Part shown: positions 1 through 52,316 of the stretch, one piece after another | Layout: the number at the start of each line of letters is the position of its first letter | Numbering within the stretch: position 1 is the first letter of the stretch | Source of the DNA: Candidatus Sumerlaeaceae bacterium | Lineage (GTDB): Bacteria; Sumerlaeota; Sumerlaeia; Sumerlaeales; Sumerlaeaceae | Reading direction: 5' to 3' | Length of the DNA: 64,000 nucleotides | NCBI GenBank assembly: GCA_049968255.1 | Contig: JBMFRB010000005.1 | Span: 101,822 to 165,821 of the forward strand | Notes under the pieces: model-generated | What the model saw: the letters and a program-made list of their open reading frames with translations, nothing else | What the model was told of the DNA's origin: nothing | Databases searched by the model: none | Program-made: the position numbers and the translations under genes

Positions 1-208
1 CGCCGCCCGTGTGATCGGTCGCCGGTGTCGGCTGCATGGTGGCAAGGGGAACGACGATCACGTCTACGCCGGCATCGTATGAAGCCGACAGTGAACCAGG
101 AAGCGTCCCATTTTGCGACGCGGTGAAATCTTCTTGCAGGACAACAGCGCCTGACGCAAACGCCGCAACGCCGGCGAAAAGTCCTGCAATAATCAGCTTG
201 CTAAACAT
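1..208 (-). CDS. Secreted protein, N-terminal part (runs off window edge)
   Basis: Not in ORF track; translated by hand from ATG at 208 with GGAGG RBS: MFSKLIIAGLFAGVAAFASGAVVLQEDFTASQNG..., signal peptide, open to position 1. Confidence 0.75.
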   Translation of the reverse strand, partial: MFSKLIIAGLFAGVAAFASGAVVLQEDFTASQNGTLPGSLSASYDAGVDVIVVPLATMQPTPATDHTGG

Positions 209-383: not shown

Positions 384-1784
384 ATGCTGCGAATTCTCAT
401 TATTGATGATGAAATGAAAATGGCGGCTGCGCTGGCGCGAATGCTCGAGCGCGAGGGGCATAGGGTGCAGGCGATGTCGAGCCCCGAAGCCGCGTTGGAA
501 TCGTTAGCAGCGGCGGAGTTCGACGTCGTGCTGTGCGACATGCGTATGCCCTCGATGAGCGGGTTAGAGGTGCTGCAGCGCGCCAAGCGGCTTTTGCCGA
601 GTGTGGATTTTGTCATTATGACCGCTTATGCCGACGCTCGCTCGGCCGTGGAATGCATGAAGCAAGGTGCGCTGGATTATCTCATTAAGCCGTTCGCCAT
701 AGATGAACTGAAACTGCTGCTTCTGCGCGTTGAGGAGACACGGCACTTGCGCGAGGAAAACGCACGCCTGCGCGAGCTGGTGGACGAACGGATCTCCCTA
801 GATAACATCGTGGCAGCGTCGAAGCAGATGCAGGATGTCCTTGCCCGTGCTCGCAAGGTGGCCGCTGCCAACTCGAGTGTGCTGTTGTTGGGCGAAAGTG
901 GCACCGGCAAAGAGGTGCTTGCCAAGGCCATTCACCGCATGAGCCCTCGCGCGCAAAAACCTTTAGTGGTGGTCAATTGCGGCGCTATTCCCGAAACGCT
1001 GCTGGAGAGCGAGCTTTTCGGTCACACACGTGGGGCGTTTACGGGAGCAGTGGACGCCCGCAAAGGAATGTTTGAAATTGCCGACGGCGGCACGATTTTT
1101 CTCGATGAAATTGGCGACCTGCCACTTCATTTGCAAGTGAAGTTGCTGCGCGTGCTTCAAGAGGGAGAAATCCAGCGGATCGGCGAAAGCACGCCCCGCA
1201 AAGTGGACGTGCGCGTCATCGCTGCAACGAATCGCGACCTGGAGGGTCTTGTTGCCGAGGGCAAGTTCCGGCAAGATCTTTATTACCGGCTCAATGTGAT
1301 TCCGATCTATATGCCGCCGCTGCGAGAACGGCGCGAGGACATCCCCCCCCTGATTGAGCATTTCATTGCAAAGTACGCGCCACCAGGCCGGCGCAAGCAG
1401 TTTAGTCCGGAAGCCTTCGCGCTGCTTATGCGCTATGATTATCCGGGCAATGTGCGCGAGCTGGAGAACGCCGTGGAACATGGGGTGGTCCTGAGCGACG
1501 AGGAAATCATCAAAGTTGAGGACCTTCCGCTACAGATTCAGAATGCGGACTGGGAGCGGGTGATCTATCCTGCGCCGTTATCGGAGTCGATGCCCTTGGA
1601 TGAACTCGAGAAACGCGCCATGCTTGCCGCACTCGAGAAAACGAACTATAACATGACACGTGCAGCGGCCCATTTAGGCATCACACGGCGCACGCTCGGT
1701 TATCGGATTAAAAAATATGGCCTGGATGAATATGTGGCGGAAAAGATGCGGCGTCCTGCGCGGAGCAAAAAAGACGCATCATAA
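384..1784 (+). CDS. Sigma54-dependent response regulator (NtrC/AtoC/ZraR family)
   Basis: Receiver domain (IIDDE, DMRMP), Walker A GESGTGKE, GAFTGA, FLDEIGD, C-terminal Fis-type HTH. Confidence 0.96.
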   Translation: MLRILIIDDEMKMAAALARMLEREGHRVQAMSSPEAALESLAAAEFDVVLCDMRMPSMSGLEVLQRAKRLLPSVDFVIMTAYADARSAVECMKQGALDYLIKPFAIDELKLLLLRVEETRHLREENARLRELVDERISLDNIVAASKQMQDVLARARKVAAANSSVLLLGESGTGKEVLAKAIHRMSPRAQKPLVVVNCGAIPETLLESELFGHTRGAFTGAVDARKGMFEIADGGTIFLDEIGDLPLHLQVKLLRVLQEGEIQRIGESTPRKVDVRVIAATNRDLEGLVAEGKFRQDLYYRLNVIPIYMPPLRERREDIPPLIEHFIAKYAPPGRRKQFSPEAFALLMRYDYPGNVRELENAVEHGVVLSDEEIIKVEDLPLQIQNADWERVIYPAPLSESMPLDELEKRAMLAALEKTNYNMTRAAAHLGITRRTLGYRIKKYGLDEYVAEKMRRPARSKKDAS

Positions 1785-4389
1785 ACACGTCCCGGCGCAT
1801 CGCCGCAACTATGACGCCGAGCCGCGACGAACACCAAAAGTCTCGCCGAGCGCTAGCCCGCTGCGGGCAGCTGTGCTGCTAGTGCTGGTCATGGCGTGGT
1901 TTTCCAACGCAAGGGCCACAGATCTTATTGTGCGCATTCACCCAAGCAAAGCCAAGACCGAGGAACTACGGCAGTGGGTCGGTCGTTATGGCCTTTCGAT
2001 TGCGCGGCGCTTGCTCTTGCCTGGGGCTTATCTTGTTTCGTCGTCACAGCCGCCTTCCGTCATTTTGCCGAGGCTGAGAGAAGATCCCGTTATCCTTTAT
2101 GCAACGCCGCAGCGGCGGCTTGAGCTGTGCGCGACGCTGCCAAATGACCCGCTATTTGCCAATCAGTGGCAACTGCGCAACATAGGACAGAACGGCGGCT
2201 TGGCAGGCGCTGACATCAATGTTTCCCAAGCCTGGGATATCACCACGGGCAGCGCCCACACAGTGTTGGCGATTGTGGATAGCGGGGTCGAGCTCACGCA
2301 TCCCGACCTCATTGGCCAAGTGTGGACAAACCCCGGCGAGATTCCTGCTAATGGACTGGACGACGATGCCAACGGTTTCGTGGATGATGTCCACGGGTGG
2401 AATTTCTATAGCAGCTCGCCCGACGTCAGCCCCACGCTCGGCCACGGCACGAACGTGGCAGGGCTAGCGGGCGCTGCGTCGAACAACGGCATCGGCGTGG
2501 CAGGAGTCAATTGGCAGGCCCGACTTATGATTGTGAACATTTTCTCCCCGGCGGGCTACGCGACCGAAGCCGACGCAGCGGACGCTATTGTCTATGCGTG
2601 TGACAACGGCGCACGAGTCATCAATGCGAGTTGGGGAAGTCCGGGCTACTCTCAGCTTCTCACCGACGCTGTCGAGTATGCGCGAAGTAAAGGCGTGCTG
2701 ATCTGTGCGGCCGCGGGGAATTACAATTTTGACGCGGACGAACATCCGTTTTATCCAGCGGCCATTGGTTCGGATGCCTTGCTGGGCGTGGGCGGAACTA
2801 CAAATCGCGACGACTGGATCTACAACTATGGTGCGGCACGAGTGCAGATTGCTGCGCCCGCGAACCTTGTGTACATGGCGCGTTACCCGAGCACTTATGG
2901 CTATGGCAGCGGGACATCTTACGCGGCGCCGCTCGTCACGGGTGCGGCGGGGCTCTTGCTGGCGATTGCGCCGGATGCGCAGGCTGCGAATCTGCGGATG
3001 CGTCTTGTGGCGAATGCGGCCCGGCCGGTCGCCCTTGCGCAGAGAAACGTCGTCGGTGGGCGGCTTGACGTGCTCGCGGCGCTTTCACCTTCGAACACAG
3101 TGCCACTTCCAAAACTCGACATCACGTTTCGTCGTATCGGTGCGCATGGGGCATTGGTTGAGGTTGTCCCGCCGGACGATTGGCCCGCGACCACGACGGC
3201 ACTGGTTCAGATCAAGAAAGCCTTGGGACCAATCACGACCGAGAATTTTCCAGAGCTACCCGAGTGGCGCTTGGCGCGACTGGCTGAGGGCGAGAGGAGG
3301 CTTTTTCTGCTGAACGAGCTCGAGCCGGGGACAGATTACTGGATTGGCGTGCGCACCTACGATGCCGTAGGCATCGCTGGCGATTTGACGACGGCAACTT
3401 TCAGAACCTCCCCCAGCCAGATGATTTTTTATGACTCATGCGACACAACATCGCCTGTGTGGCAGGCTAACGGATTCACGCTTGCCGGTGGCGATGCACA
3501 CACAGGAAGTCTGGCGTGGCAAGACAGTCCCGACACGACCTATACCAGTGGGACAATAGCCACGCTAACCGGAGGTCCGTTCGATATATCTGGACTTGCG
3601 CGACCCCGATTATCATTTTATCTTGAACACTTTTTCCCATCCCGGCTAGCCGAGGGTGATCGCCTTGAAGTTCGGGTAAGTACGGACCATGGTGCGACAT
3701 GGAAGGTGCTGCGCAGGTTCCATGCCACGGTGAGCCCGCTTCGCCGCTTCTGCCTGCCTCTCGACGATCTGGGGCCGGCACCAGCGCTATTCATTCAATT
3801 CCGACTGGTGGCAGATGCCAACGCTTACGTGGATGATGGCGTTTATTTGGACGATATCGCGCTGGAGGAAGCGAAGGGCGACGTGCCTTTCGCTGATGAT
3901 GTGATTGTCGAATCCTACGATTTTTTTGGTGAGGAGAACGGCTTGCCGGAGTTTGAGCGCGTAGGGCCATGGTCTGCCGACGCTGGCAAGAGTAGTGCGC
4001 CGAAACTGGTGGGAGCGGCCGTCTTTTCCGCGGTCGCCGGCACGACCGCAACGCGGGCGAGCTTCATCCCGTTTGTCCCAATGAGCGGAGACTACGAAGT
4101 GTTTCTGAGTCACGGGGCATTGGCCGACGCAGCTCATGTAAAAGTCGAGATCATTCACGCAGATGGGATTGCAGACATGTTTCTGGACCAGTCGAGTGCG
4201 TCGAGCAACCGTTGGATAAGCCTCGGTGTCTTCTCGTTTGTTTACGGACGCGATAAATTGCGAGGACGTGTTTCGATAGACACGGCTACGGCAACTGGCA
4301 CAAAGGTCTTCGCCGACGCTGTGCGGCTGATCCTTGTTCGTCCGGCTGCCGAGAGTTTGGCAGCTAAAGATTGGTCACAATTCGAGTAA
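1717..4389 (+). CDS. Secreted subtilisin-like S8 serine protease with FN3-like, beta-sandwich and Golvesin/Xly-CBD-like C-terminal domains
   Basis: Triad motifs AIVDSG, GHGTNVAG, GTSYAAP; AAAGN oxyanion motif; DDDANGFVDD Ca loop; signal-like LRAAVLLVLVMAWFSNARA; start uncertain. Confidence 0.93.
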   Translation: MAWMNMWRKRCGVLRGAKKTHHKHVPAHRRNYDAEPRRTPKVSPSASPLRAAVLLVLVMAWFSNARATDLIVRIHPSKAKTEELRQWVGRYGLSIARRLLLPGAYLVSSSQPPSVILPRLREDPVILYATPQRRLELCATLPNDPLFANQWQLRNIGQNGGLAGADINVSQAWDITTGSAHTVLAIVDSGVELTHPDLIGQVWTNPGEIPANGLDDDANGFVDDVHGWNFYSSSPDVSPTLGHGTNVAGLAGAASNNGIGVAGVNWQARLMIVNIFSPAGYATEADAADAIVYACDNGARVINASWGSPGYSQLLTDAVEYARSKGVLICAAAGNYNFDADEHPFYPAAIGSDALLGVGGTTNRDDWIYNYGAARVQIAAPANLVYMARYPSTYGYGSGTSYAAPLVTGAAGLLLAIAPDAQAANLRMRLVANAARPVALAQRNVVGGRLDVLAALSPSNTVPLPKLDITFRRIGAHGALVEVVPPDDWPATTTALVQIKKALGPITTENFPELPEWRLARLAEGERRLFLLNELEPGTDYWIGVRTYDAVGIAGDLTTATFRTSPSQMIFYDSCDTTSPVWQANGFTLAGGDAHTGSLAWQDSPDTTYTSGTIATLTGGPFDISGLARPRLSFYLEHFFPSRLAEGDRLEVRVSTDHGATWKVLRRFHATVSPLRRFCLPLDDLGPAPALFIQFRLVADANAYVDDGVYLDDIALEEAKGDVPFADDVIVESYDFFGEENGLPEFERVGPWSADAGKSSAPKLVGAAVFSAVAGTTATRASFIPFVPMSGDYEVFLSHGALADAAHVKVEIIHADGIADMFLDQSSASSNRWISLGVFSFVYGRDKLRGRVSIDTATATGTKVFADAVRLILVRPAAESLAAKDWSQFE

Positions 4390-4465: not shown

Positions 4466-5155
4466 ATGAGCAAGCAGAATGTTATGTCTGGCCCTCCTCA
4501 GTCAGTGGCTGCGAAGGAGCTAAAAGATCTTCTTCCGCTGGAAGTGCTCATTGCCATTTTCATTGTGGTGGAAGCGCTTATCATTTGGCTAATGGCCCCG
4601 CAGTTTACGCGAGAGTTCACTCGGTGGAAATCGCAACGCTATGCCATGAAAGGCGATTATAAAGCAGCAGCCCAAGAGTTGTACAAGCTTCTGCAAACTC
4701 CTAAAGGCGAGAACAACCCGACCTTTCTCGCGGAGTTGGGTAACTGCTATTATAACCTTGGCGATTACGACAAAAGCATCGAATTCTACCAGCGGGCGCA
4801 AGAGAACCGGATGAACGTCGTTGCAGACCTCGACGACGACTCGCCGCATGAATACCCTGACTTCAACGCCATGATCGGTTTGTGCTATTTCCGCAAAGGC
4901 GATCTCGACAAAGCCGAAGAATATTTCAAAAAGGCCCTGGAAGCAAACCGTTTGGACAAGCTAGCGCACATGAAGCTGGGCGAGATCGAGTTCAAAAAGG
5001 GCAAATACTTGAAGGCCATTGACTATTTCAAATTCGTAGCGCGTGACCCTGCCTACGAAAAGGCTGTGCGCGAGTATTATCAAAAAATCGAAGCAGAACT
5101 CTTCAAGGGCGTAGCGGCCCCTGACAGCGAAGCGCTGACCACACAGTCAAAATAA
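4466..5155 (+). CDS. Membrane-anchored TPR protein
   Basis: N-terminal TM helix; TPR repeats (LGNCYYNLGDYDKSIEFYQRA, IGLCYFRKGDLDKAEEYFKKA). Confidence 0.88.
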   Translation: MSKQNVMSGPPQSVAAKELKDLLPLEVLIAIFIVVEALIIWLMAPQFTREFTRWKSQRYAMKGDYKAAAQELYKLLQTPKGENNPTFLAELGNCYYNLGDYDKSIEFYQRAQENRMNVVADLDDDSPHEYPDFNAMIGLCYFRKGDLDKAEEYFKKALEANRLDKLAHMKLGEIEFKKGKYLKAIDYFKFVARDPAYEKAVREYYQKIEAELFKGVAAPDSEALTTQSK

Positions 5156-44787: not shown

Positions 44788-47151
44788 ATGAGCAGGCCTA
44801 GCATACATCATTTCGGCGAAACGCGCTTTCCCATTGCCCCTTTATTTGTCACCTTGTGTTCTCTCTTGGTTTGGGCGTTACCCTCACTTTCACTCAGTGG
44901 TTTTTTTGGTAGGTTCTTTTTCTATATGGTACATGGGGGTGCACCTATCGCCTCTGAGCTTGGTGTTCGCCCGTGGATTCTGCTGGTATTTGGTACAATC
45001 GTAGGAATACTGGCTTTCTCCTTGTCTCGAAGGATTGTATGGGTGGGATTTCTGCTGCTAAGTGCTTTCAGCGTCGCACAAGCATCTGTGCTAGACTTTC
45101 CGTGGCCCAAACGTGAGGAAGGAGTTATCTTTTTTGTCGCGCATACGGCTATGTGGCTTTTGCTGCCTTGCATTGTTTGGGCTTACGCAAATACACCTCG
45201 TGTGCGACACTTAATCCGCATAAGCTTTATTCCTCTTGGCGTAATCAATTATTTAACATTCGTTTTATGGTTGTCAAAGTCTAGTGTAGGAATAACTCTT
45301 GCCCCCTACGCTCCCTATGTGATGGACAGCTCAGGCATAAATGAAAATGCTTCGCGCTTCAGCGGAACCCTAAACTCGCCGAATGCGTTGGCTCTACTTG
45401 CCATAGTTACGTGGCCGGCGTTTTTGTCACCGATCCGTGCAGAGTGGTGCCGGTTCTATGCTTCGCTGTTACGAATCATTTCATTGGCCCTTATCTATGT
45501 TATGGTGTTTTTCACATATTCTCGCGCTGCGTATTTGGGCTTGATTGTGCAATTCTGTTTTCTCGCGCCGATAGTTTTTGCCCAAAGCCAAGGCTCGTCA
45601 AAACGAGCTGCAGATCATGCGTTCCTCGCCCTAGGCCTTGCTTGCGTTATAGCTGTTTTAGTGAATTCTGTTCGTCAGCGGGTGATTTCTGCGTTTAGCG
45701 GAGGGACTGATGCATCGATTCTTAATCGTTTGGAAGTTTATTCCGTGGCGTTACGACTTTTATGGGAGCGCCCATTTTGCGGCTGGGGCCCGGGCTCGTT
45801 TGCGCATTTATACAATGTGTTCTATCGCATCCCTGGGGTGAATTATGCTTTCCACGATGTTCACAGTGCATTCTTTTCACGTTTTCTCGACATTGGTTTT
45901 GCGGGTATTTGCCTCGAAGTGATACTACTTCTGGGGCTGTCACCTTTTAAAAATGTCAAGCGGGTTCCTTTGTGGGTTCGGCTGAGTTTCGTCGGAGCAA
46001 TAGTGCCCTCGATTGCAGAAAACGCTTCCCGAGTCACGTTTGCAGTAGACATAGCATGGATATGGATAGCTGCCGTCGTCGTCATATACACGCGAGGAGC
46101 CAACGCTCGGAGTAATAAATGTGATAGCGACAGAACAAGAAGTTTATTATTTACCTGTGCATGTTCCGGACTGTGGCTCATGAATTTCGTGGTTGAGCCC
46201 AAAAACGCGTGCGACCGACTAAACGCTGAATTGAACCGGCTTTGTTCATCACTTGTCGGCAAGACGACCGCCTCTGTGTATATCTCTGATGTCGGAACTG
46301 TTTGGCGCTCGAAGGAGGAGAGAGAGTTTCCAAGTGTTATAGCCTCTATGCTGCTCTTGTCCGAAGCCTCCGTTGCGAAGCCGGAAACGATGATAGACCT
46401 GGTCGATTTCCGCCCTGTACCAGCCATGGAGCGAAACGTTCCCATAATCCTGAAAGCGCCGGAGGCCGCGGCCTATCTGTTGTACGCCTCTGACCCGCTC
46501 GCTGCCCAACGATTAGTTGATCTTTTGCCAGCAGACCTTTTGAGAGAGGTGGCTCGACGAGATTTTAGGTGCGAACCGTTTCATGCGGTGGCTGCTGAGA
46601 ATTTTTGTCCGACGTGCGCTCTGTACGAAATCCCGCGACAACGGGAATTCGTTGGTCGTGGTCTACGCACCTACGCAACCACCGCCACTATCTCGCAGGT
46701 TGCGAATGCTTTTGCCAAAATTCTGGAAACGACGACCTCAGCTGTGGTTCCAATCCGGACTGCGCTGGCTGACTCCCGTGATGAGTGGGGGATGCTTCGT
46801 CATTTAGGGGGCGTAGGTTCTGTCTGGGGCCTCAGTTTTTACTCTGGGCCAAAACGCGAGGAAATAGTGGCCATTCCGCTAACTGGCGGTGGACAGCTTG
46901 TTCTGGCGATGGAGTATGAAGCGAGGCAGAGCATTCCGGCACGTGTCGATTCGGCTGCGAATAAAGTTTTTGCACTTACCGCCTGGCGATGTTGGTGTGT
47001 GCTCCAGGCCGAAGGAGAAGAAACGTTTGTGTCCCTGGCCAAACGCAACCCTGCGGGGTGCGATATCCTGCGCGAGCTTCAGGACTACTGTACGCGCCAC
47101 GGCGTGCGCCATGTGCACGAACTTATCGGTGCCGCACAGCCGCCATGGTAG
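44788..47151 (+). CDS. O-antigen ligase/O-OTase (Wzy_C) family protein fused to degenerate class A beta-lactamase-like domain; C-terminus derived from pyrD
   Basis: RFSGTLNSPNALA, FTYSRAAYLG, RLEVY...ERPFCGWGPGSF, HDVHS; many TMs; soluble C-terminal domain. Confidence 0.8.
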   Translation: MSRPSIHHFGETRFPIAPLFVTLCSLLVWALPSLSLSGFFGRFFFYMVHGGAPIASELGVRPWILLVFGTIVGILAFSLSRRIVWVGFLLLSAFSVAQASVLDFPWPKREEGVIFFVAHTAMWLLLPCIVWAYANTPRVRHLIRISFIPLGVINYLTFVLWLSKSSVGITLAPYAPYVMDSSGINENASRFSGTLNSPNALALLAIVTWPAFLSPIRAEWCRFYASLLRIISLALIYVMVFFTYSRAAYLGLIVQFCFLAPIVFAQSQGSSKRAADHAFLALGLACVIAVLVNSVRQRVISAFSGGTDASILNRLEVYSVALRLLWERPFCGWGPGSFAHLYNVFYRIPGVNYAFHDVHSAFFSRFLDIGFAGICLEVILLLGLSPFKNVKRVPLWVRLSFVGAIVPSIAENASRVTFAVDIAWIWIAAVVVIYTRGANARSNKCDSDRTRSLLFTCACSGLWLMNFVVEPKNACDRLNAELNRLCSSLVGKTTASVYISDVGTVWRSKEEREFPSVIASMLLLSEASVAKPETMIDLVDFRPVPAMERNVPIILKAPEAAAYLLYASDPLAAQRLVDLLPADLLREVARRDFRCEPFHAVAAENFCPTCALYEIPRQREFVGRGLRTYATTATISQVANAFAKILETTTSAVVPIRTALADSRDEWGMLRHLGGVGSVWGLSFYSGPKREEIVAIPLTGGGQLVLAMEYEARQSIPARVDSAANKVFALTAWRCWCVLQAEGEETFVSLAKRNPAGCDILRELQDYCTRHGVRHVHELIGAAQPPW
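47053..47139 (+). repeat. Direct repeat copy 2 (displaced pyrD 3' fragment)
   Basis: Encodes AGCDILRELQDYCTRHGVRHVHELIGAAQ vs PyrD AGRDILRELEDYCERHGVRRVRELVGAAH. Confidence 0.92.
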
Positions 47152-47507: not shown

Positions 47508-48482
47508 TCAGTGTTCTGTGGTGATGACTTCGAGCGGCGGTGGGCCCACATAGAGATTCACGCGCAGCTCGATGGGGTCGCGATAGCGCCGAACCGTAAA
47601 GATCCCGATGTCCTTCGGGCCAGTGTTGATATTTTCGCCAATACTCACCCGGTACGTATCACCCTCGTGGGCTGGAATGGCAAAGCGTGCGGCGACGGGC
47701 TCGTCCTCCGCGCCGGAGGGCAACGTTAGCGACTCCCTTACGACTGCCTCAAGCGGCGTGAGTGTCACTGGCACATTGATCATCCGGCGAAAGGGCAATT
47801 CATACACGGACACTTCCGCACGCACGACAGGGACGACGGGAAGAAAAAGTGCGCTGGTGGTTTTCGCGTCGCCCACACGCAGGCGAAACCGCCGCTCCGG
47901 GGGATTGCTTGGCCATAAGCGCACCTCCTCGCCAGATAGGGGCTGGTAGTTGGCGAAAATCTCAAGCTCGACTTCGTCAAGTTTTCCCTTGGCTGGAGCG
48001 AGCAAAATGCGCGTGAACCCTCCGCCATTGGTCACAAAGGGACCGCCAACTGTGCTGCCACCATAGCCGTAGATGGCAAAGTCGCTCACGGGCTGCAAAT
48101 TGACGCGATCGAACACGAAGACGCATAAACTGGGAGAAGACGCGGAGGCCGGAGGGAGAGCACTCTTCTCGAACGTAGAAATAATATCCTGCGGAGAGCT
48201 GGTGAGTTCCGGGAGCCATCGCGATCTCGCGGGCTGCCGCGCCACGGTACCCGAAGCGAGGGCGGCTGTCGTGGTCATGGTCGGAGCGCTCTGAGTGTAA
48301 AGCGAGGCTGAAGTGGATGGCGGCTCCACTCGCTTAGCGGCTGGCGATGTCACCGCTGTGGCCGCATCAACATAGACGGCGCGCTGCAGAGTGCTTGTCG
48401 TCAGAGCCGCAGCATGGGGAGCGAAGAACGTTAGTGCGCCCACCACACTCAGCACAATGAACGAATTAATGATCTGCTGCAT
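47508..48482 (-). CDS. Secreted hypothetical protein with S/T/A/P-rich linker and beta-sandwich-like C-terminal region
   Basis: Signal peptide ...VVGALTFFAPHAAA; low-complexity linker; start uncertain (48482 or 48518). Confidence 0.65.
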   Translation of the reverse strand: MQQIINSFIVLSVVGALTFFAPHAAALTTSTLQRAVYVDAATAVTSPAAKRVEPPSTSASLYTQSAPTMTTTAALASGTVARQPARSRWLPELTSSPQDIISTFEKSALPPASASSPSLCVFVFDRVNLQPVSDFAIYGYGGSTVGGPFVTNGGGFTRILLAPAKGKLDEVELEIFANYQPLSGEEVRLWPSNPPERRFRLRVGDAKTTSALFLPVVPVVRAEVSVYELPFRRMINVPVTLTPLEAVVRESLTLPSGAEDEPVAARFAIPAHEGDTYRVSIGENINTGPKDIGIFTVRRYRDPIELRVNLYVGPPPLEVITTEH

Positions 48483-49133
48483 GTTCGAGTCCTCCCATTG
48501 GACGGTCTTCAGCGACACAATATCGATAATTTCTTATCTTTCTATTATAATGTTAAGCCGTGCAAACTATTATGTTATTCGTTTCAAGCCTCTCAGGTTA
48601 TCGTTTTTGCTCAATGATACATCGATCTTAATGCCGCCCCTTTGTGGACAAGGCTCGATGCCCACATCTCTTCACATTTTTTCCGTAATCGAGGTCGCAA
48701 ACTCCGAGTGCATCCGTGCGATAAATTGTCATCGCTGTATTGCCCGGATGCCTGGCCTTTTGCGTCGAGTGGGCTTTGCGGCTTCTGGGGTGCGCCACGA
48801 GAAACCGCCGTTTTGCAGACACTGAATTGCATTGCCCGACTGTGGCCTACTTGGCAAAGCTCAGAAACAACTTTACCAGCAACGCAAGGCTTGGTCTGGC
48901 TGCGGGCCTTGCAGGGGCTTATCCAAGACTACGACTCCGTTTGTCCTAAGCTTAGGATATCGCCTAGCTTTCGCCACCTCGGGAAAGTTTGTGGCCGCGA
49001 ATACCACAGACGCGAGAAGAATGGTAGGGCTGCTTTTTTCTTCATACATGTGGAACTCAGCTAGGCAAACACAATGTGTCGTCATCCTGCGCAACGCCGT
49101 ATTGTTTTGTAGCCTAACTTCTCGTCAACTGGC

Positions 49134-49244: not shown

Positions 49245-52200
49245 TTAGTAAGCAGCCCATTCGGTCACACCCGCTGGGAAAGGCTCGGCAACCGCAATGT
49301 CCGAAGCCCCACTGTAAATGACGGTGGCAACAGCGCCCTTTGAGCTCAGACGCAGCACACCGAAGCTCGGGTGCTCCGGATTGCTGATGGACTGCACCAG
49401 CTGGTGCAGGTTATATGTCGGCGCGTTTGGTGTGGCTAGCGTCACCCACGACGTGGGGTTCGTTGGATCACGCGCCACGAGCACTGATTTCTGGCCAAGT
49501 GGGTCAACACCAGCGAATCCGCCCACGTCGGCCACAAGAGTCCAGTCGCCGCTCGGACCCACATCGATACCATCGCCGAGAGCCAGGTGATACGCTCCAG
49601 CCGGATCAACCTTGTTCACGTTGTCCATCGAGTTTGTGTTTCCATTCGCGGCAAGGTTGAATGGCCATCCGCCCGGATCTCCGGGGGCGAAGCTCACCGC
49701 AATCGTCCCACCAGCACCGAGTGCTGCGGAAGTGCTCACCGTCAACATTCTACGCAGCCCCGACGCGGGGTCCACCAGCGGGAAGTCCACGCTGGCAAGA
49801 GCCGCCGTCCCGCGCCAACGCTTGAAGGTGCCTTGAACGAGGGCGATTTCACCGCTTGGGTAGGAGAGAGTTCCCACGTTTGAAGTGTCCATTCCAAGAG
49901 TGAGAGTTCCAGCTCCGCCATTCATCACGAGACGCCCTCTCTTCAGGCTCAGCACCTTGGTGCAGCGGTAATCGCCTGGCAGATTCACACTTCCGTTTGT
50001 CGCGCAGACAATTCCGCCAACATCACCCGGCACGAGAGCACCCGCCGCCTGTCCACTGACATCGCCACAGAATCCCCAGACGCCAACACCCTGGAGCGGT
50101 ACATTACTAAAGGCACCACTGAGGGTCACGCCAGGGAAGTCGCTGGACTGCGGCGGCATGTTGGCAAAGCCAGAGGGGCTATCGGTGGCAAATCCACCGT
50201 TTGCACCCCACGTCACACTGCCGAGACCATTGACCACTCCGCCGCTGCGTGGTGCGAGAGTTCCCTTGATCGTGAGTGTGTTGTTGCAGGTCAGTGTCCC
50301 GAAAATGTGGGCGATTTTACCCGTAGCATCTCCGCCAAGCGTGACCGGATCGTTGCAGGTAAGAGTGACGCCGGAAGGCACCACGAGGTCGCCCGAGATC
50401 GTGATATTCGCGGGCCAAGTCATCGAGTTTGAGATGATGAGTGGTGTAGCGTTGAAGTCACTAGCGGTCGTGTTGTTATTGACCACACTGCCCGCGAGGA
50501 TGACTGGTCCTGTCATCGACGGCTTAAAGGTGGCTGTTGCCCCTATTGTCAGGGTATTCGCGATGGTAGCGGGTAGACCGCCCGACGCGGTATAATTCGC
50601 GCCGTTGAGAATAAGATTACCGAAGCTACGGCCCGAGAATGGGATCGCTGTAGATGTTGCCAAAAATTCCACGGTCGATCCCGGATCAAAAGACCATGCA
50701 CCATAGCTCACCGGAATGTATCCGCTTGGCAAGGCCCCTGGGAAAGGCGTGGCGACACTGCGGCTCGTGTTGAACTGGAGATATCCACCATTTTCGACTT
50801 TGCCCGTCGCGGTGGGATCGAAGTAGTAGATGCTAGTTGAGCCGCCCAGCGTGCCAGGCGCAAATTCGAAACGGCCACCGTTGCGCACATTTACGTCCGG
50901 CGTGGCGGGGTTCAAGTCGCCACCAATGTTGAGAATTTCATTGATGGTCGTCGTCTCGATGCGAAGAGTGATCACGTTGCTTGCGCTTAGAGGATCACCG
51001 ATCGTCAGGGTGCGGCAATTTGCTTCGGCAGTGGAAGAGCTAATCTTAACCGTGTAGGCACTTGTGACATTGGTGTGGTCCAGCACGACATCATCGAGTG
51101 GCGTCGGCACACCGGCGGGTGACCAGTTCCCCGGATCGAACCAGTCGCTGGCATTTAGGCCAGCGCCCAACCACTGCTTCACCGTCCCGGTCGCTGGCGG
51201 GGTGATGGCCCACGAACCAATATAGTTGTTGGTGACCAAGGCAAAGATGTTCGTGCCATCAGTAGCAAAGTCGCCTGTCCCATTTGCGTTAGCATTAGGG
51301 GTTGCGAGTGCGGGACCAAAATCCACCAACTGACCCTGAGCAGGTCCGCTCGTGACATCGGTCACCGAGAAACGCGCGTATGCGTTCGTTGATGCTTTGG
51401 GCAGGCCATGGTGAATGGCGCAATAGTATGTTTTGCCGCCGATCGCCAGTGGCACACCGTGCAGAGCACTCGAGTGCACTCCTGTGATCATGGACTGGAA
51501 CGCCCCAGAATTCGTGTAAACCGCGAGAGCCCCATTCGTTTGATGCCAAATCGCACCCGTCACGGGATCCACATATTCGCCGCGCAACGCGTTTCCGAAA
51601 CCATAGTCCGAAGGCAGCCCCGTCAACGTGATCTCTGAGACGGAAGCCACATTCGTGTTGCTCGTCGGTGGAACTTGGGGGTCTGTGTAGGCGAACTTGT
51701 AGACGGAGTTGAGGATGTTGGCTCGCGCCACACCAACATAGAACTCGACATTAGATCCGCTGACAAGCCGCGCCCAGAATGTGTCACCCACACGCTGCGA
51801 GTAAGCAACGAAGGCTTGAGGGAGCGTTGGGCCCACTGGCGTTGCCTCCGCAGTAGCTGCGTCCGCAGCGCGGTTTGCATAGATAACCTCCGGAGCCCCG
51901 AGGGTATCTTCGCTCGCGCCGGCGGCACCAAACCACCGATAAATCTTGAAAGTTTCGGTCTTGCTGTTGATGGAGAGATTGCACGCATAAACAGCGTAGC
52001 CTGCTGCTCCAAAGTCCACAACCCGAACTTTCACTAGAGGCCGTGTGCCACCTGTAACACCCGTGATATTCATATTACCCACTGTGGCGCCGTCCGCGGC
52101 CTTGAGGACCACAATCCCTGGCGCGCTGGTTGATGAACGCACGACAAGCAAGTGGCCAGTACTGGGGTTGTAGGCCAACCCACGCGTCTCGTTGTCATTT

Positions 52201-52316
52201 TGTATGGGCGCGTTGGGAGCGTCAATGCGCCAGTTCTGCGTTAGCGCGCCAAAAGCGCTCAGCGTACCCGCGAGTGTGAGCCATGCCACTAAGCATGGCA
52301 GTATTCGGTGTCTCAT
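49245..52316 (-). CDS. Large secreted protein: DUF4623-like N-terminal region plus beta-helix/adhesin-like region
   Basis: AAGGAGG RBS, signal peptide; RGLAYN..FKIYRW..RVGD; DWFDPGNWSPAGVP motif; G/T/N-rich beta repeats. Confidence 0.75.
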   Translation of the reverse strand: MRHRILPCLVAWLTLAGTLSAFGALTQNWRIDAPNAPIQNDNETRGLAYNPSTGHLLVVRSSTSAPGIVVLKAADGATVGNMNITGVTGGTRPLVKVRVVDFGAAGYAVYACNLSINSKTETFKIYRWFGAAGASEDTLGAPEVIYANRAADAATAEATPVGPTLPQAFVAYSQRVGDTFWARLVSGSNVEFYVGVARANILNSVYKFAYTDPQVPPTSNTNVASVSEITLTGLPSDYGFGNALRGEYVDPVTGAIWHQTNGALAVYTNSGAFQSMITGVHSSALHGVPLAIGGKTYYCAIHHGLPKASTNAYARFSVTDVTSGPAQGQLVDFGPALATPNANANGTGDFATDGTNIFALVTNNYIGSWAITPPATGTVKQWLGAGLNASDWFDPGNWSPAGVPTPLDDVVLDHTNVTSAYTVKISSSTAEANCRTLTIGDPLSASNVITLRIETTTINEILNIGGDLNPATPDVNVRNGGRFEFAPGTLGGSTSIYYFDPTATGKVENGGYLQFNTSRSVATPFPGALPSGYIPVSYGAWSFDPGSTVEFLATSTAIPFSGRSFGNLILNGANYTASGGLPATIANTLTIGATATFKPSMTGPVILAGSVVNNNTTASDFNATPLIISNSMTWPANITISGDLVVPSGVTLTCNDPVTLGGDATGKIAHIFGTLTCNNTLTIKGTLAPRSGGVVNGLGSVTWGANGGFATDSPSGFANMPPQSSDFPGVTLSGAFSNVPLQGVGVWGFCGDVSGQAAGALVPGDVGGIVCATNGSVNLPGDYRCTKVLSLKRGRLVMNGGAGTLTLGMDTSNVGTLSYPSGEIALVQGTFKRWRGTAALASVDFPLVDPASGLRRMLTVSTSAALGAGGTIAVSFAPGDPGGWPFNLAANGNTNSMDNVNKVDPAGAYHLALGDGIDVGPSGDWTLVADVGGFAGVDPLGQKSVLVARDPTNPTSWVTLATPNAPTYNLHQLVQSISNPEHPSFGVLRLSSKGAVATVIYSGASDIAVAEPFPAGVTEWAAY

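Follow-up and report, generated by a model that had tools for sequence, protein, structure and literature searches.

Why should two unrelated secreted proteins end in nearly the same few residues? This question is raised by a 64,000-nucleotide stretch of the genome of a Candidatus Sumerlaeaceae bacterium (hereafter the window; C5:101822-165821 of genome G000, which has 3.12 Mb in 31 contigs and is 95.75% complete). Translation of the window confirmed that a beta-helix protein of 1023 amino acids (aa) ends in PAGVTEWAAY (49245-49277, minus strand, stop codon included) and that an S8 protease ends in SLAAKDWSQFE (4354-4389, plus strand, stop codon included), as an earlier sequence-only reading of the same DNA had stated. 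That reading had proposed that both ends belong to a lineage-specific sorting tag with the consensus A-x-x-[DE]-W-x-x-[FY]. According to the available part of PMC8092238, the Sumerlaeota are an uncultured phylum. The analyses presented here show that genomes across the Sumerlaeota encode this tail as a short linear tag at C-termini, and we consider it likely that the tag acts after Sec export in sorting, either in export across the outer membrane or in retention at the surface, and is recognized non-covalently.

The genes of G000 were obtained with our own crude dicodon log-odds caller (2285 genes, covering 88% of the genome), whose errors at start codons do no harm to counts of tails because C-termini depend on stop codons alone. 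The pattern [AV]x{1,2}[DEN]Wxx[YF]x{0,2}$, which the sequence-only reading had named as the decisive search, matched 23 of the 2285 C-termini against 0.5 expected from its 68 internal occurrences, and 20 of these 23 proteins had signal-peptide-like N-termini against 975 of all 2285 genes; the motif is therefore enriched at C-termini and among candidate exported proteins, as had been proposed. The pattern [DE]Wxx[YF]x{0,1}$ also gave 23 C-termini, 19 of them from signal-peptide-like proteins, against 0.5 expected (Poisson p ~2e-30). A core motif derived from other genomes was found at 13 C-termini of G000 against 0.12 expected, on none of the reversed proteins, and on none of the 8128 non-called open reading frames (ORFs) of at least 100 codons. 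With a position-specific scoring matrix (PSSM) at a threshold of >=12, 25 ORF ends were retrieved against 3 of 892,027 internal positions, a comparison that is circular since the matrix was built from the same seeds.

The widest list of tails in G000 comprises 32 proteins, 31 of them credible and 27 of the 32 signal-peptide-like; about 31 proteins of this genome carry either the canonical tag or the second tail class described below. The excess of signal-peptide-like proteins among those with the strict form of the tag is significant (Fisher p 3e-5). As for the tagged proteins that are not signal-peptide-like, one is cut at a contig end and another (P0001) starts further downstream than called. 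Codons and stop codons vary between copies of the tag, and it is therefore the peptide that is conserved rather than a DNA repeat. One additional canonical tail, VSEWEFY followed by a stop, lies at G000 C6:254100-254123 (minus strand), ~100 bases from a contig end, and is missing from the gene list.

The consensus of the tag is P-x(1-3)-[TSA]-[ASG]-[VI]-x-[DE]-W-x-L-[YF]-(x)-stop. The earlier consensus was close to this; [VI]-x-[DE]-W-x-L-[YF] followed by zero or one residue describes the tails better. When 80 tails from nine genomes were tabulated and numbered from the tryptophan (W=0), positions -7 and -6 were often P, position -5 was T, S or A in 70 tails, position -4 was A, S or G, position -3 was V or I in 65 tails, position -1 was D or E (by selection), position +2 was L and position +3 was Y or F, followed by the stop or by one further residue. 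Among 56 aligned tails of 36 residues, W is the only invariant residue, L and Y are kept in at least 90%, the mean column identity is 18%, and the sequence upstream of position -7 cannot be aligned. T, N, S and P are over-represented in the 13 residues that precede the tag, which thus comprises ~9-10 residues placed after a T/S/N/P-rich linker. The further residue (E, D, Q, K or R) is present after about one third of the G000 tags and after most of those in families f2, f4, f7 and f8.

A second tail class, LP[VT]xLSx[FW]x[VIL]E, closes four proteins of G000, all signal-peptide-like, and has no internal occurrence in this genome (0.01 expected). It is also found elsewhere at the ends of paralogs of tagged proteins, namely metalloproteases in G034, G037, G038, G046 and G061. 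Both tail classes have a hydrophobic residue at position -3, an aromatic residue at position 0 and a hydrophobic residue at position +2.

According to Pfam and NCBIfam, the proteins that carry the tag in G000 are mutually unrelated. They include a GH18 chitinase, a GH57 protein with CBM25/53, two to three S8 proteases, a polysaccharide deacetylase with Golvesin_C, a Kelch protein, a metalloprotease of the NF038122 type, an fn3 protein, a pseudopilin-derived protein, a protein with choice-of-anchor X repeats (L016), and many proteins without a family. The passenger folds include TIM barrels, subtilases, the metalloprotease, Kelch and LamG-like folds. In another genome (G064 L071:6148-11144, minus strand), a tagged FG-GAP-like protein ending in GVNDWTLY, a pseudopilin and a 1071-aa protein ending in MVKDWTRY stand in an operon-like row.

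That the tail is a modular signal, occupying the slot of known surface-sorting signals, is argued most strongly by the metalloprotease carrier (P0001, a true protein of 302 aa), for which 1058 homologs were found at E <=1e-5 and 120 were listed. In this family the tail starts directly after the end of the shared domain, D[IM]GW. Among the homologs listed, this junction is followed by a W-x-L-Y tail or a close variant in 17 of 120, by FlgD_ig or the C-terminal domain (CTD) of the type IX secretion system (T9SS) in 21 of 120, by dockerin (PF00404) in 3 of 120, and by PEP-CTERM in P0041 and P0060, the latter with PF07589; one further listed homolog is a CFI-box-CTERM protein, and others have other modules or nothing. 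When 77 metalloprotease loci in named genomes were inspected, the tail was present at one of the two Sumerlaeota loci and at none of the 75 others; these end in PEP-CTERM (Kiritimatiellales, Rubripirellula, Polyangia), in a T9SS CTD (Eisenbacteria, Krumholzibacteria, Bacteroidetes) or, at other loci, in a dockerin-like module. In the AlphaFold2 (AF2) model of P0001, built on 66 sequences with a mean pLDDT of 93.4, the pLDDT is 98 at residues 281-290, then falls to 68 and to 40 over the tail. This placement supports the idea, already put forward from the two window tails, of a short sorting or surface-attachment tag without a transmembrane (TM) segment, which would take the position that PEP-CTERM, T9SS CTD and dockerin have on homologs. 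In operational terms, a sorting tag is expected to be one short tail on many unrelated proteins, limited to C-termini and to exported (here signal-peptide-like) proteins, and interchangeable with known anchors on homologous passengers; each of these properties was observed, the last one for the metalloprotease family and for the choice-of-anchor X protein of L016.

The tag extends through the phylum. The strict DNA pattern V-x-[DE]-W-x-[LF]-Y-stop, with its reversal as a control, matched 217 times in 75 Sumerlaeota genomes, against 7 control matches (10 against 0 in G000), with at least one match in 42 of the 75, and its range takes in both other classes of the phylum (G001, G074). In 50 genomes of other phyla the same pattern gave 3 matches against 4 controls. 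With a looser pattern, 30 of the 75 Sumerlaeota genomes were at least 5 above control, among them the two genomes of the other classes and all 13 that belong to the same family as the window, and five further genomes (Omnitrophota, Kiritimatiellales, Rubripirellula, Eisenbacteria and Calditrichaceae) were at background. Together with the 75 non-Sumerlaeota metalloprotease loci, these counts bear out, for the genomes sampled, the lineage specificity that the sequence-only reading had assumed.

In families without the canonical form, metalloprotease and S8 homologs end in VNDWQVLE, RSTWMLY, SWQLYQ, NWSLYR, FWELYD or RDWTLYE. A pattern with one extra codon (VRDWNLYE, VRRWRLYD, VAHWELYR and the like) exceeded its control in G003 (7 against 1), G009 (6 against 1) and G005 (7 against 2), and gave no excess in G017 (5 against 5) and G002 (0 against 1). 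At the position before W, families f7 (R-R-W), f4 (H-W) and f8 (S/N-W) depart from the D/E-W of family f1. Taken at the level of sequence, the tag is therefore phylum-wide in the Sumerlaeota, with lineage variants. As an observation apart, some S8 proteases of family f2 (G002, G003; L107, L110, L112) end in dockerin-like DxNxDG repeats and not in the tag, a hint that this lineage may use cohesin-dockerin attachment.

The two tails of the window differ in quality (coordinates are given in Table 1). The 1023-aa protein has a signal-peptide-like N-terminus, starting MRHRILPCLVAWLTLAGTLSAFG, matches no family in Pfam or NCBIfam, and has a parallel beta-helix-like centre at about residues 540-710 (AF2 strands, pLDDT 70-83). 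The AF2 model, built on 6 sequences, has a mean pLDDT of 51, too poor for a fold search, and within this generally poor model the last 11 residues are below 50. Its five orthologs (63-77% identity) all have V-x-[ES]-W-x-x-Y as their last residues, with no change at V1017, W1020 or Y1023 among the 6 sequences aligned; because V, W and Y are invariant in the five orthologs, its tail can be regarded as a good member of the tag class. Beside this gene lie a gene for a 787-aa multi-pass protein that combines an O-antigen ligase domain (Wzy_C) with a C-terminal half that is long and soluble (44788-47151, plus strand) and one for a 336-aa signal-peptide protein without a family (47508-48518, minus strand).

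The S8 subtilase matches PF00082 (Peptidase_S8) at 5.8e-40 and PF25275 (Golvesin_C) at 1.6e-13 in Pfam. Its hydrophobic leader, LRAAVLLVLVMAWFSNARA, lies inside the ORF, and the true start is probably internal, ahead of this leader. The tail fits [DE]Wxx[YF]x$ and scores below 12 with the PSSM, Q taking the place of L. The gene that begins 77 bases past the S8 gene (4466-5155, plus strand) encodes a protein of 229 aa that has a single TM segment at its N-terminus and also TPR-like repeats. A third tagged gene is cut by the start of the window: it lies at G000 C5:101241-102029, encodes 262 aa ending in GASAVTDWTLYE, and its tag is 581 bases ahead of the first base of the window.

Table 1. Coordinates of tails, tagged genes and candidate partners (window positions, or contig or locus where so indicated)
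Feature	Position	Strand	Basis or remark
Tag PAGVTEWAAY of the 1023-aa beta-helix protein	49248..49277	-	translation; stop codon 49245-49247
Gene of this tagged secreted protein, 1023 aa from MRHRIL...	49245..52316	-	ORF list; identical protein P0121, 1023 aa
Weak/degenerate tag SLAAKDWSQFE of the S8 protease	4354..4386	+	translation; stop 4387-4389
S8 subtilase gene with C-terminal Golvesin_C domain, 890-codon ORF	1717..4389	+	Pfam and sequence
Third tagged gene, 5' end only in window	1..208	-	genome-wide list and window offset
Second-class carrier in G000	C1:118386-120944		paralogous S8 protease, ends VPTRVSSWELE
Second-class carrier in G000	C4:241266-244094		
Second-class carrier in G000	C8:83538-84548		
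Second-class carrier in G000	C4:115114-115815		
G000 secretin 1			type II secretion system operon with gspF, H, J, K, L, M, D
G000 secretin 2			pilMNOPQ
G000 secretin 3, giant, 1576 aa, N-terminal TPR repeats	C2:23566-28296 (locus L116:2667-7397), outside window		after 671-aa PilM-like gene
Pseudopilin-bearing loci	L036, L039, L055, L063, L066, L071, L078, L080		

We then asked how the tail relates to known sorting signals. The last 50 residues of 20 carriers gave no match in NCBIfam even at E <=10, and nowhere do Pfam or NCBIfam models touch the tails; no description of the tail was found in NCBIfam release 20, in Pfam or, as judged by titles and the openings of abstracts, in the literature searched. 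In agreement with the sequence-only reading, the tails lack PEP-CTERM, T9SS CTD and autotransporter barrel, and genome-wide profile searches of G000 found no T9SS CTD, exosortase or sortase. Appending one tag to many unrelated exported proteins is the general logic of tripartite sorting signals in the available parts of PMC1569441, PMC3237569 and PMC11980579. The PEP-CTERM/exosortase, LPXTG/sortase, GlyGly-CTERM, MYXO-CTERM and PGF-CTERM systems resemble the tag in this respect, and PEP-CTERM even occupies the same junction on homologous metalloproteases. However, those signals combine a motif with a TM helix, a basic tail and an intramembrane or membrane-bound enzyme, whereas the tag has neither TM helix nor basic tail. 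Because it lacks a membrane-spanning segment and a basic tail, it could not work as a classical sortase-type tripartite signal. G000 has no match to exosortase (PF09721) or sortase (PF04203), its tails contain neither LPXTG nor a TM segment, the PEP motif followed by a TM helix and an Arg-rich end is absent from the tags, and no PEP-CTERM-like class was found among the C-termini of this genome.

The T9SS CTD shares with the tag that it is a TM-less C-terminal signal on Sec-exported hydrolases of diderms, and some homologs of the metalloprotease carrier have it, but the CTD (PF18962, PF13860-type) is a folded domain of 70-100 residues and the tag a linear peptide of ~10. Single matches to PF18962 were obtained in 3 of the 75 Sumerlaeota genomes and none in G000, and no T9SS CTD (PF18962/TIGR04183) is present at the ends of carriers. 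Dockerin, which docks non-covalently on cohesin, is likewise a C-terminal module of extracellular enzymes and occurs as PF00404 on metalloprotease homologs; it differs in being a Ca-binding domain of ~70 residues with a known partner, while the tag has no known cohesin-like partner. By this analogy we think that the tag, if it is an anchor, would work most like dockerin-cohesin attachment. The beta-signal read by the beta-barrel assembly machinery (BAM) in the periplasm is also an aromatic-ended C-terminal motif, but in another register, and the carriers of the tag are soluble enzymes. Outer-membrane protein (OMP)-like proteins of G000 end in F with alternating hydrophobic residues (LFHFTFTSAF, QTIYKF, LEYKF), and no autotransporter or outer-membrane beta-barrel domain was detected on the carriers with Pfam and NCBIfam.

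IPTL-CTERM is the known signal whose motif comes closest to the tag. We used as a reference 16 genuine domains from Methylococcales genomes, which read P-x-x-P-IPTLSEW[AG]x[IL]... and continue into a TM helix and basic residues. Like the tag, IPTL-CTERM is C-terminal on diverse exported proteins and has a hydrophobic residue at -3, an acidic residue at -1, W at 0, a small residue at +1 and Pro-Thr upstream; the second tail class, LP[VT]xLSx[FW], comes closer still to IPTLSEW. The difference is that IPTL-CTERM runs on into a membrane-spanning helix and a basic cluster, whereas the Sumerlaeota tag ends 3-4 residues past the W. Model TIGR04174 (27 positions, cut-off 20.5 bits) gave one marginal match over the 75 Sumerlaeota genomes, limited to model positions 7-25, the TM part. 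The relation therefore looks like resemblance and not membership. T9SS CTD, IPTL-CTERM, exosortase and sortase, all absent by profile searches, were rejected as explanations of the tail.

It follows that the exported enzymes of G000 need another route or anchor, because this organism, like the phylum as a whole, is a diderm, with secretins of the type II secretion system (T2SS) and of type IV pili, and without T9SS CTD, exosortase or sortase. A flexible linker joins the tag to ~30 proteins per genome that are otherwise unrelated; to judge by their signal-peptide-like N-termini, these would first be exported by Sec. We propose that a receptor specific to the phylum, located in the periplasm or the outer membrane, then binds the extended tag peptide without a covalent bond, either in a groove or by strand addition, and that the folded enzyme is passed across the outer membrane or held on the cell surface. 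PEP-CTERM, the T9SS CTD and dockerin would have the same role on homologs in other phyla.

A more specific version of this scheme, which we regard as rather unlikely, is that the tail is a linear outer-membrane export signal for folded proteins and a bacterial counterpart of PTS1, the eukaryotic peroxisomal C-terminal import signal that is read by the soluble receptor PEX5. The parallel is purely functional: like the tag, PTS1 is a linear peptide of very few residues that closes folded and mutually unrelated proteins, but the domain of life, the compartment and the motif are different. In the periplasm, a Sumerlaeota-specific component of the expanded T2SS-like apparatus would recognize the tail; the phylum-wide giant secretin, with its N-terminal extension of ~1200 residues, or a cargo-adaptor pseudopilin may be considered for this part.

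Other explanations place the tail outside such a sorting scheme or change its chemistry. That the two window tails are alike by chance would have been natural to suppose when just two instances, one of them weak, were visible in the window; the 23 C-termini of G000 against 0.5 expected and the 217 matches against 7 across the phylum refute it, and its probability is now negligible. It is also very improbable that the tail is an end-cap strand of the preceding domain, shared by descent of C-terminal domains and without signal function. The beta-helix family of the window does vary at position +2 (A, L, R, S), and its tail is close behind a beta-rich region. However, the domains that precede the tag are unrelated, nothing can be aligned upstream of position -7, metalloprotease homologs fold equally well without the tail or with other anchors, and the tail of P0001 has a low pLDDT beside a domain at 98.

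An unlikely reading, albeit one with a motif to recommend it, is that the tail is a remnant or minimal version of a cleaved sortase-type signal akin to IPTL-CTERM, cut at or near V-x-D/E-W so that the protein is transferred to a surface acceptor, with the anchor dispensable. The hydrophobic, acidic and small residues and the upstream Pro-Thr shared with the Methylococcales IPTLSEW, and the even nearer second tail class, speak for it; yet only 4-5 positions of a short motif agree, which convergence or chance could produce, TIGR04174 and the NCBIfam searches of the tails (E <=10) returned nothing real, G000 has no exosortase or sortase, and a substrate without an anchor would not be held at a membrane enzyme. 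We know of no enzyme for IPTL-CTERM itself. We consider it somewhat less probable again that the tag is a ligand of a periplasmic PDZ-type protease or C-terminal processing peptidase and marks maturation, regulated degradation or envelope stress, in the way that OMP C-termini (YxF) activate DegS. Its place at the extreme C-terminus and its hydrophobic or aromatic end recall PDZ ligands, and G000 encodes one S41 peptidase. However, the tag is restricted to a single phylum, and S41 peptidases occur almost everywhere (in 10 of 14 control genomes); the extra residue in a good part of the tags shifts the carboxylate and the P0/P-2 register; the conserved V(-3), D/E(-1), W(0) and L(+2) are unlike P0/P-2 logic; and a degradation tag is not expected in the slot of PEP-CTERM, CTD and dockerin on homologs.

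Candidate partners of the proposed sorting tag were sought by clustering the 1051 proteins encoded at 60 loci (~20 kb) around tags in eight other genomes and in the G000 neighbourhoods, and by profile searches. Apart from histidine kinases, glycosyltransferases and ABC parts, the sole recurrent neighbour was a GspG-like pseudopilin family, present at 15 loci with 5 same-strand adjacent pairs with tagged genes. The pseudopilin family has 21 genes in G000 (for example C5:256499-257131) and the signature FTLIELLIVVAIIAILAAIAVPNFLEAQ ... TTPIAY ... YDPTNGT[VI]SxGDI. A complex prediction of the pseudopilin globular domain with 36-residue tails scored 0.01, which is evidence neither way. Secretins (PF00263) were found in all 75 Sumerlaeota genomes, three of them in G000. 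The non-secretin part of the giant secretin is kept in 69 of the 75 genomes irrespective of the tag form, in ORFs of 1200-2000 aa, its TPR part is conserved within family f1 only, and searches against PDB sequences matched only the secretin core. The TPR region as tag receptor was only a guess and was dropped: TPRs are kept in f1 only, and a pilotin reading is simpler, TPR pilotins of secretins being known. An Atlas search returned scores of 0.76 and was uninformative. Phylogenetic profiling within the Sumerlaeota has no clean tag-negative group, because apparent negatives carry variant tails.

Several observations weigh against the sorting tag that we favour. The neighbourhood clustering and the profile searches identified no receptor or machinery gene. 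Pseudopilins were discarded as a specific partner, their signature being present in 73 of the 75 genomes with 10-124 copies each, whatever the form of the tag; secretins were discarded as well, being universal in the phylum, more numerous where the canonical tag is missing, and uncorrelated with it. Recognition would have to be loose, since the residue after Y/F is optional and, in some families, the one before W varies; this speaks against a mechanism that reads the carboxyl end strictly. The S8 tail, one of the two that raised the question, is a poor match and seems a weak member of the class. The signal-peptide calls came from a home-made, lax heuristic that over-calls, the gene calls are heuristic and home-made too, and, given how diverse bacteria are, the sample taken outside the phylum (55 genomes and 75 homolog loci) is small.

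On several occasions, C-terminal sorting tags have been the way to the discovery of an envelope machinery; sortase, exosortase, rhombosortase, T9SS and myxosortase are examples. To our knowledge, every known bacterial sorting tag either is a folded domain or has a tripartite build that includes a membrane anchor. A TM-less tag of ~10 residues on ~30 extracellular enzymes per genome, found across a whole phylum, would therefore imply a new type of recognition system. Should the tag feed into a secretin pathway, it would be relevant to the old question of what determines substrate choice in type II-like systems, and under the PTS1-like reading a secretin-based pathway would for the first time have a secretion signal defined by its sequence. 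A short transferable tag may also be useful for engineered surface display or secretion. For the organisms themselves, the tag offers a means to list, directly from genomes, the exoproteome (chitinases, amylases, proteases) of the Sumerlaeota, which are thought to be polymer scavengers, as indicated in the available part of PMC8092238.

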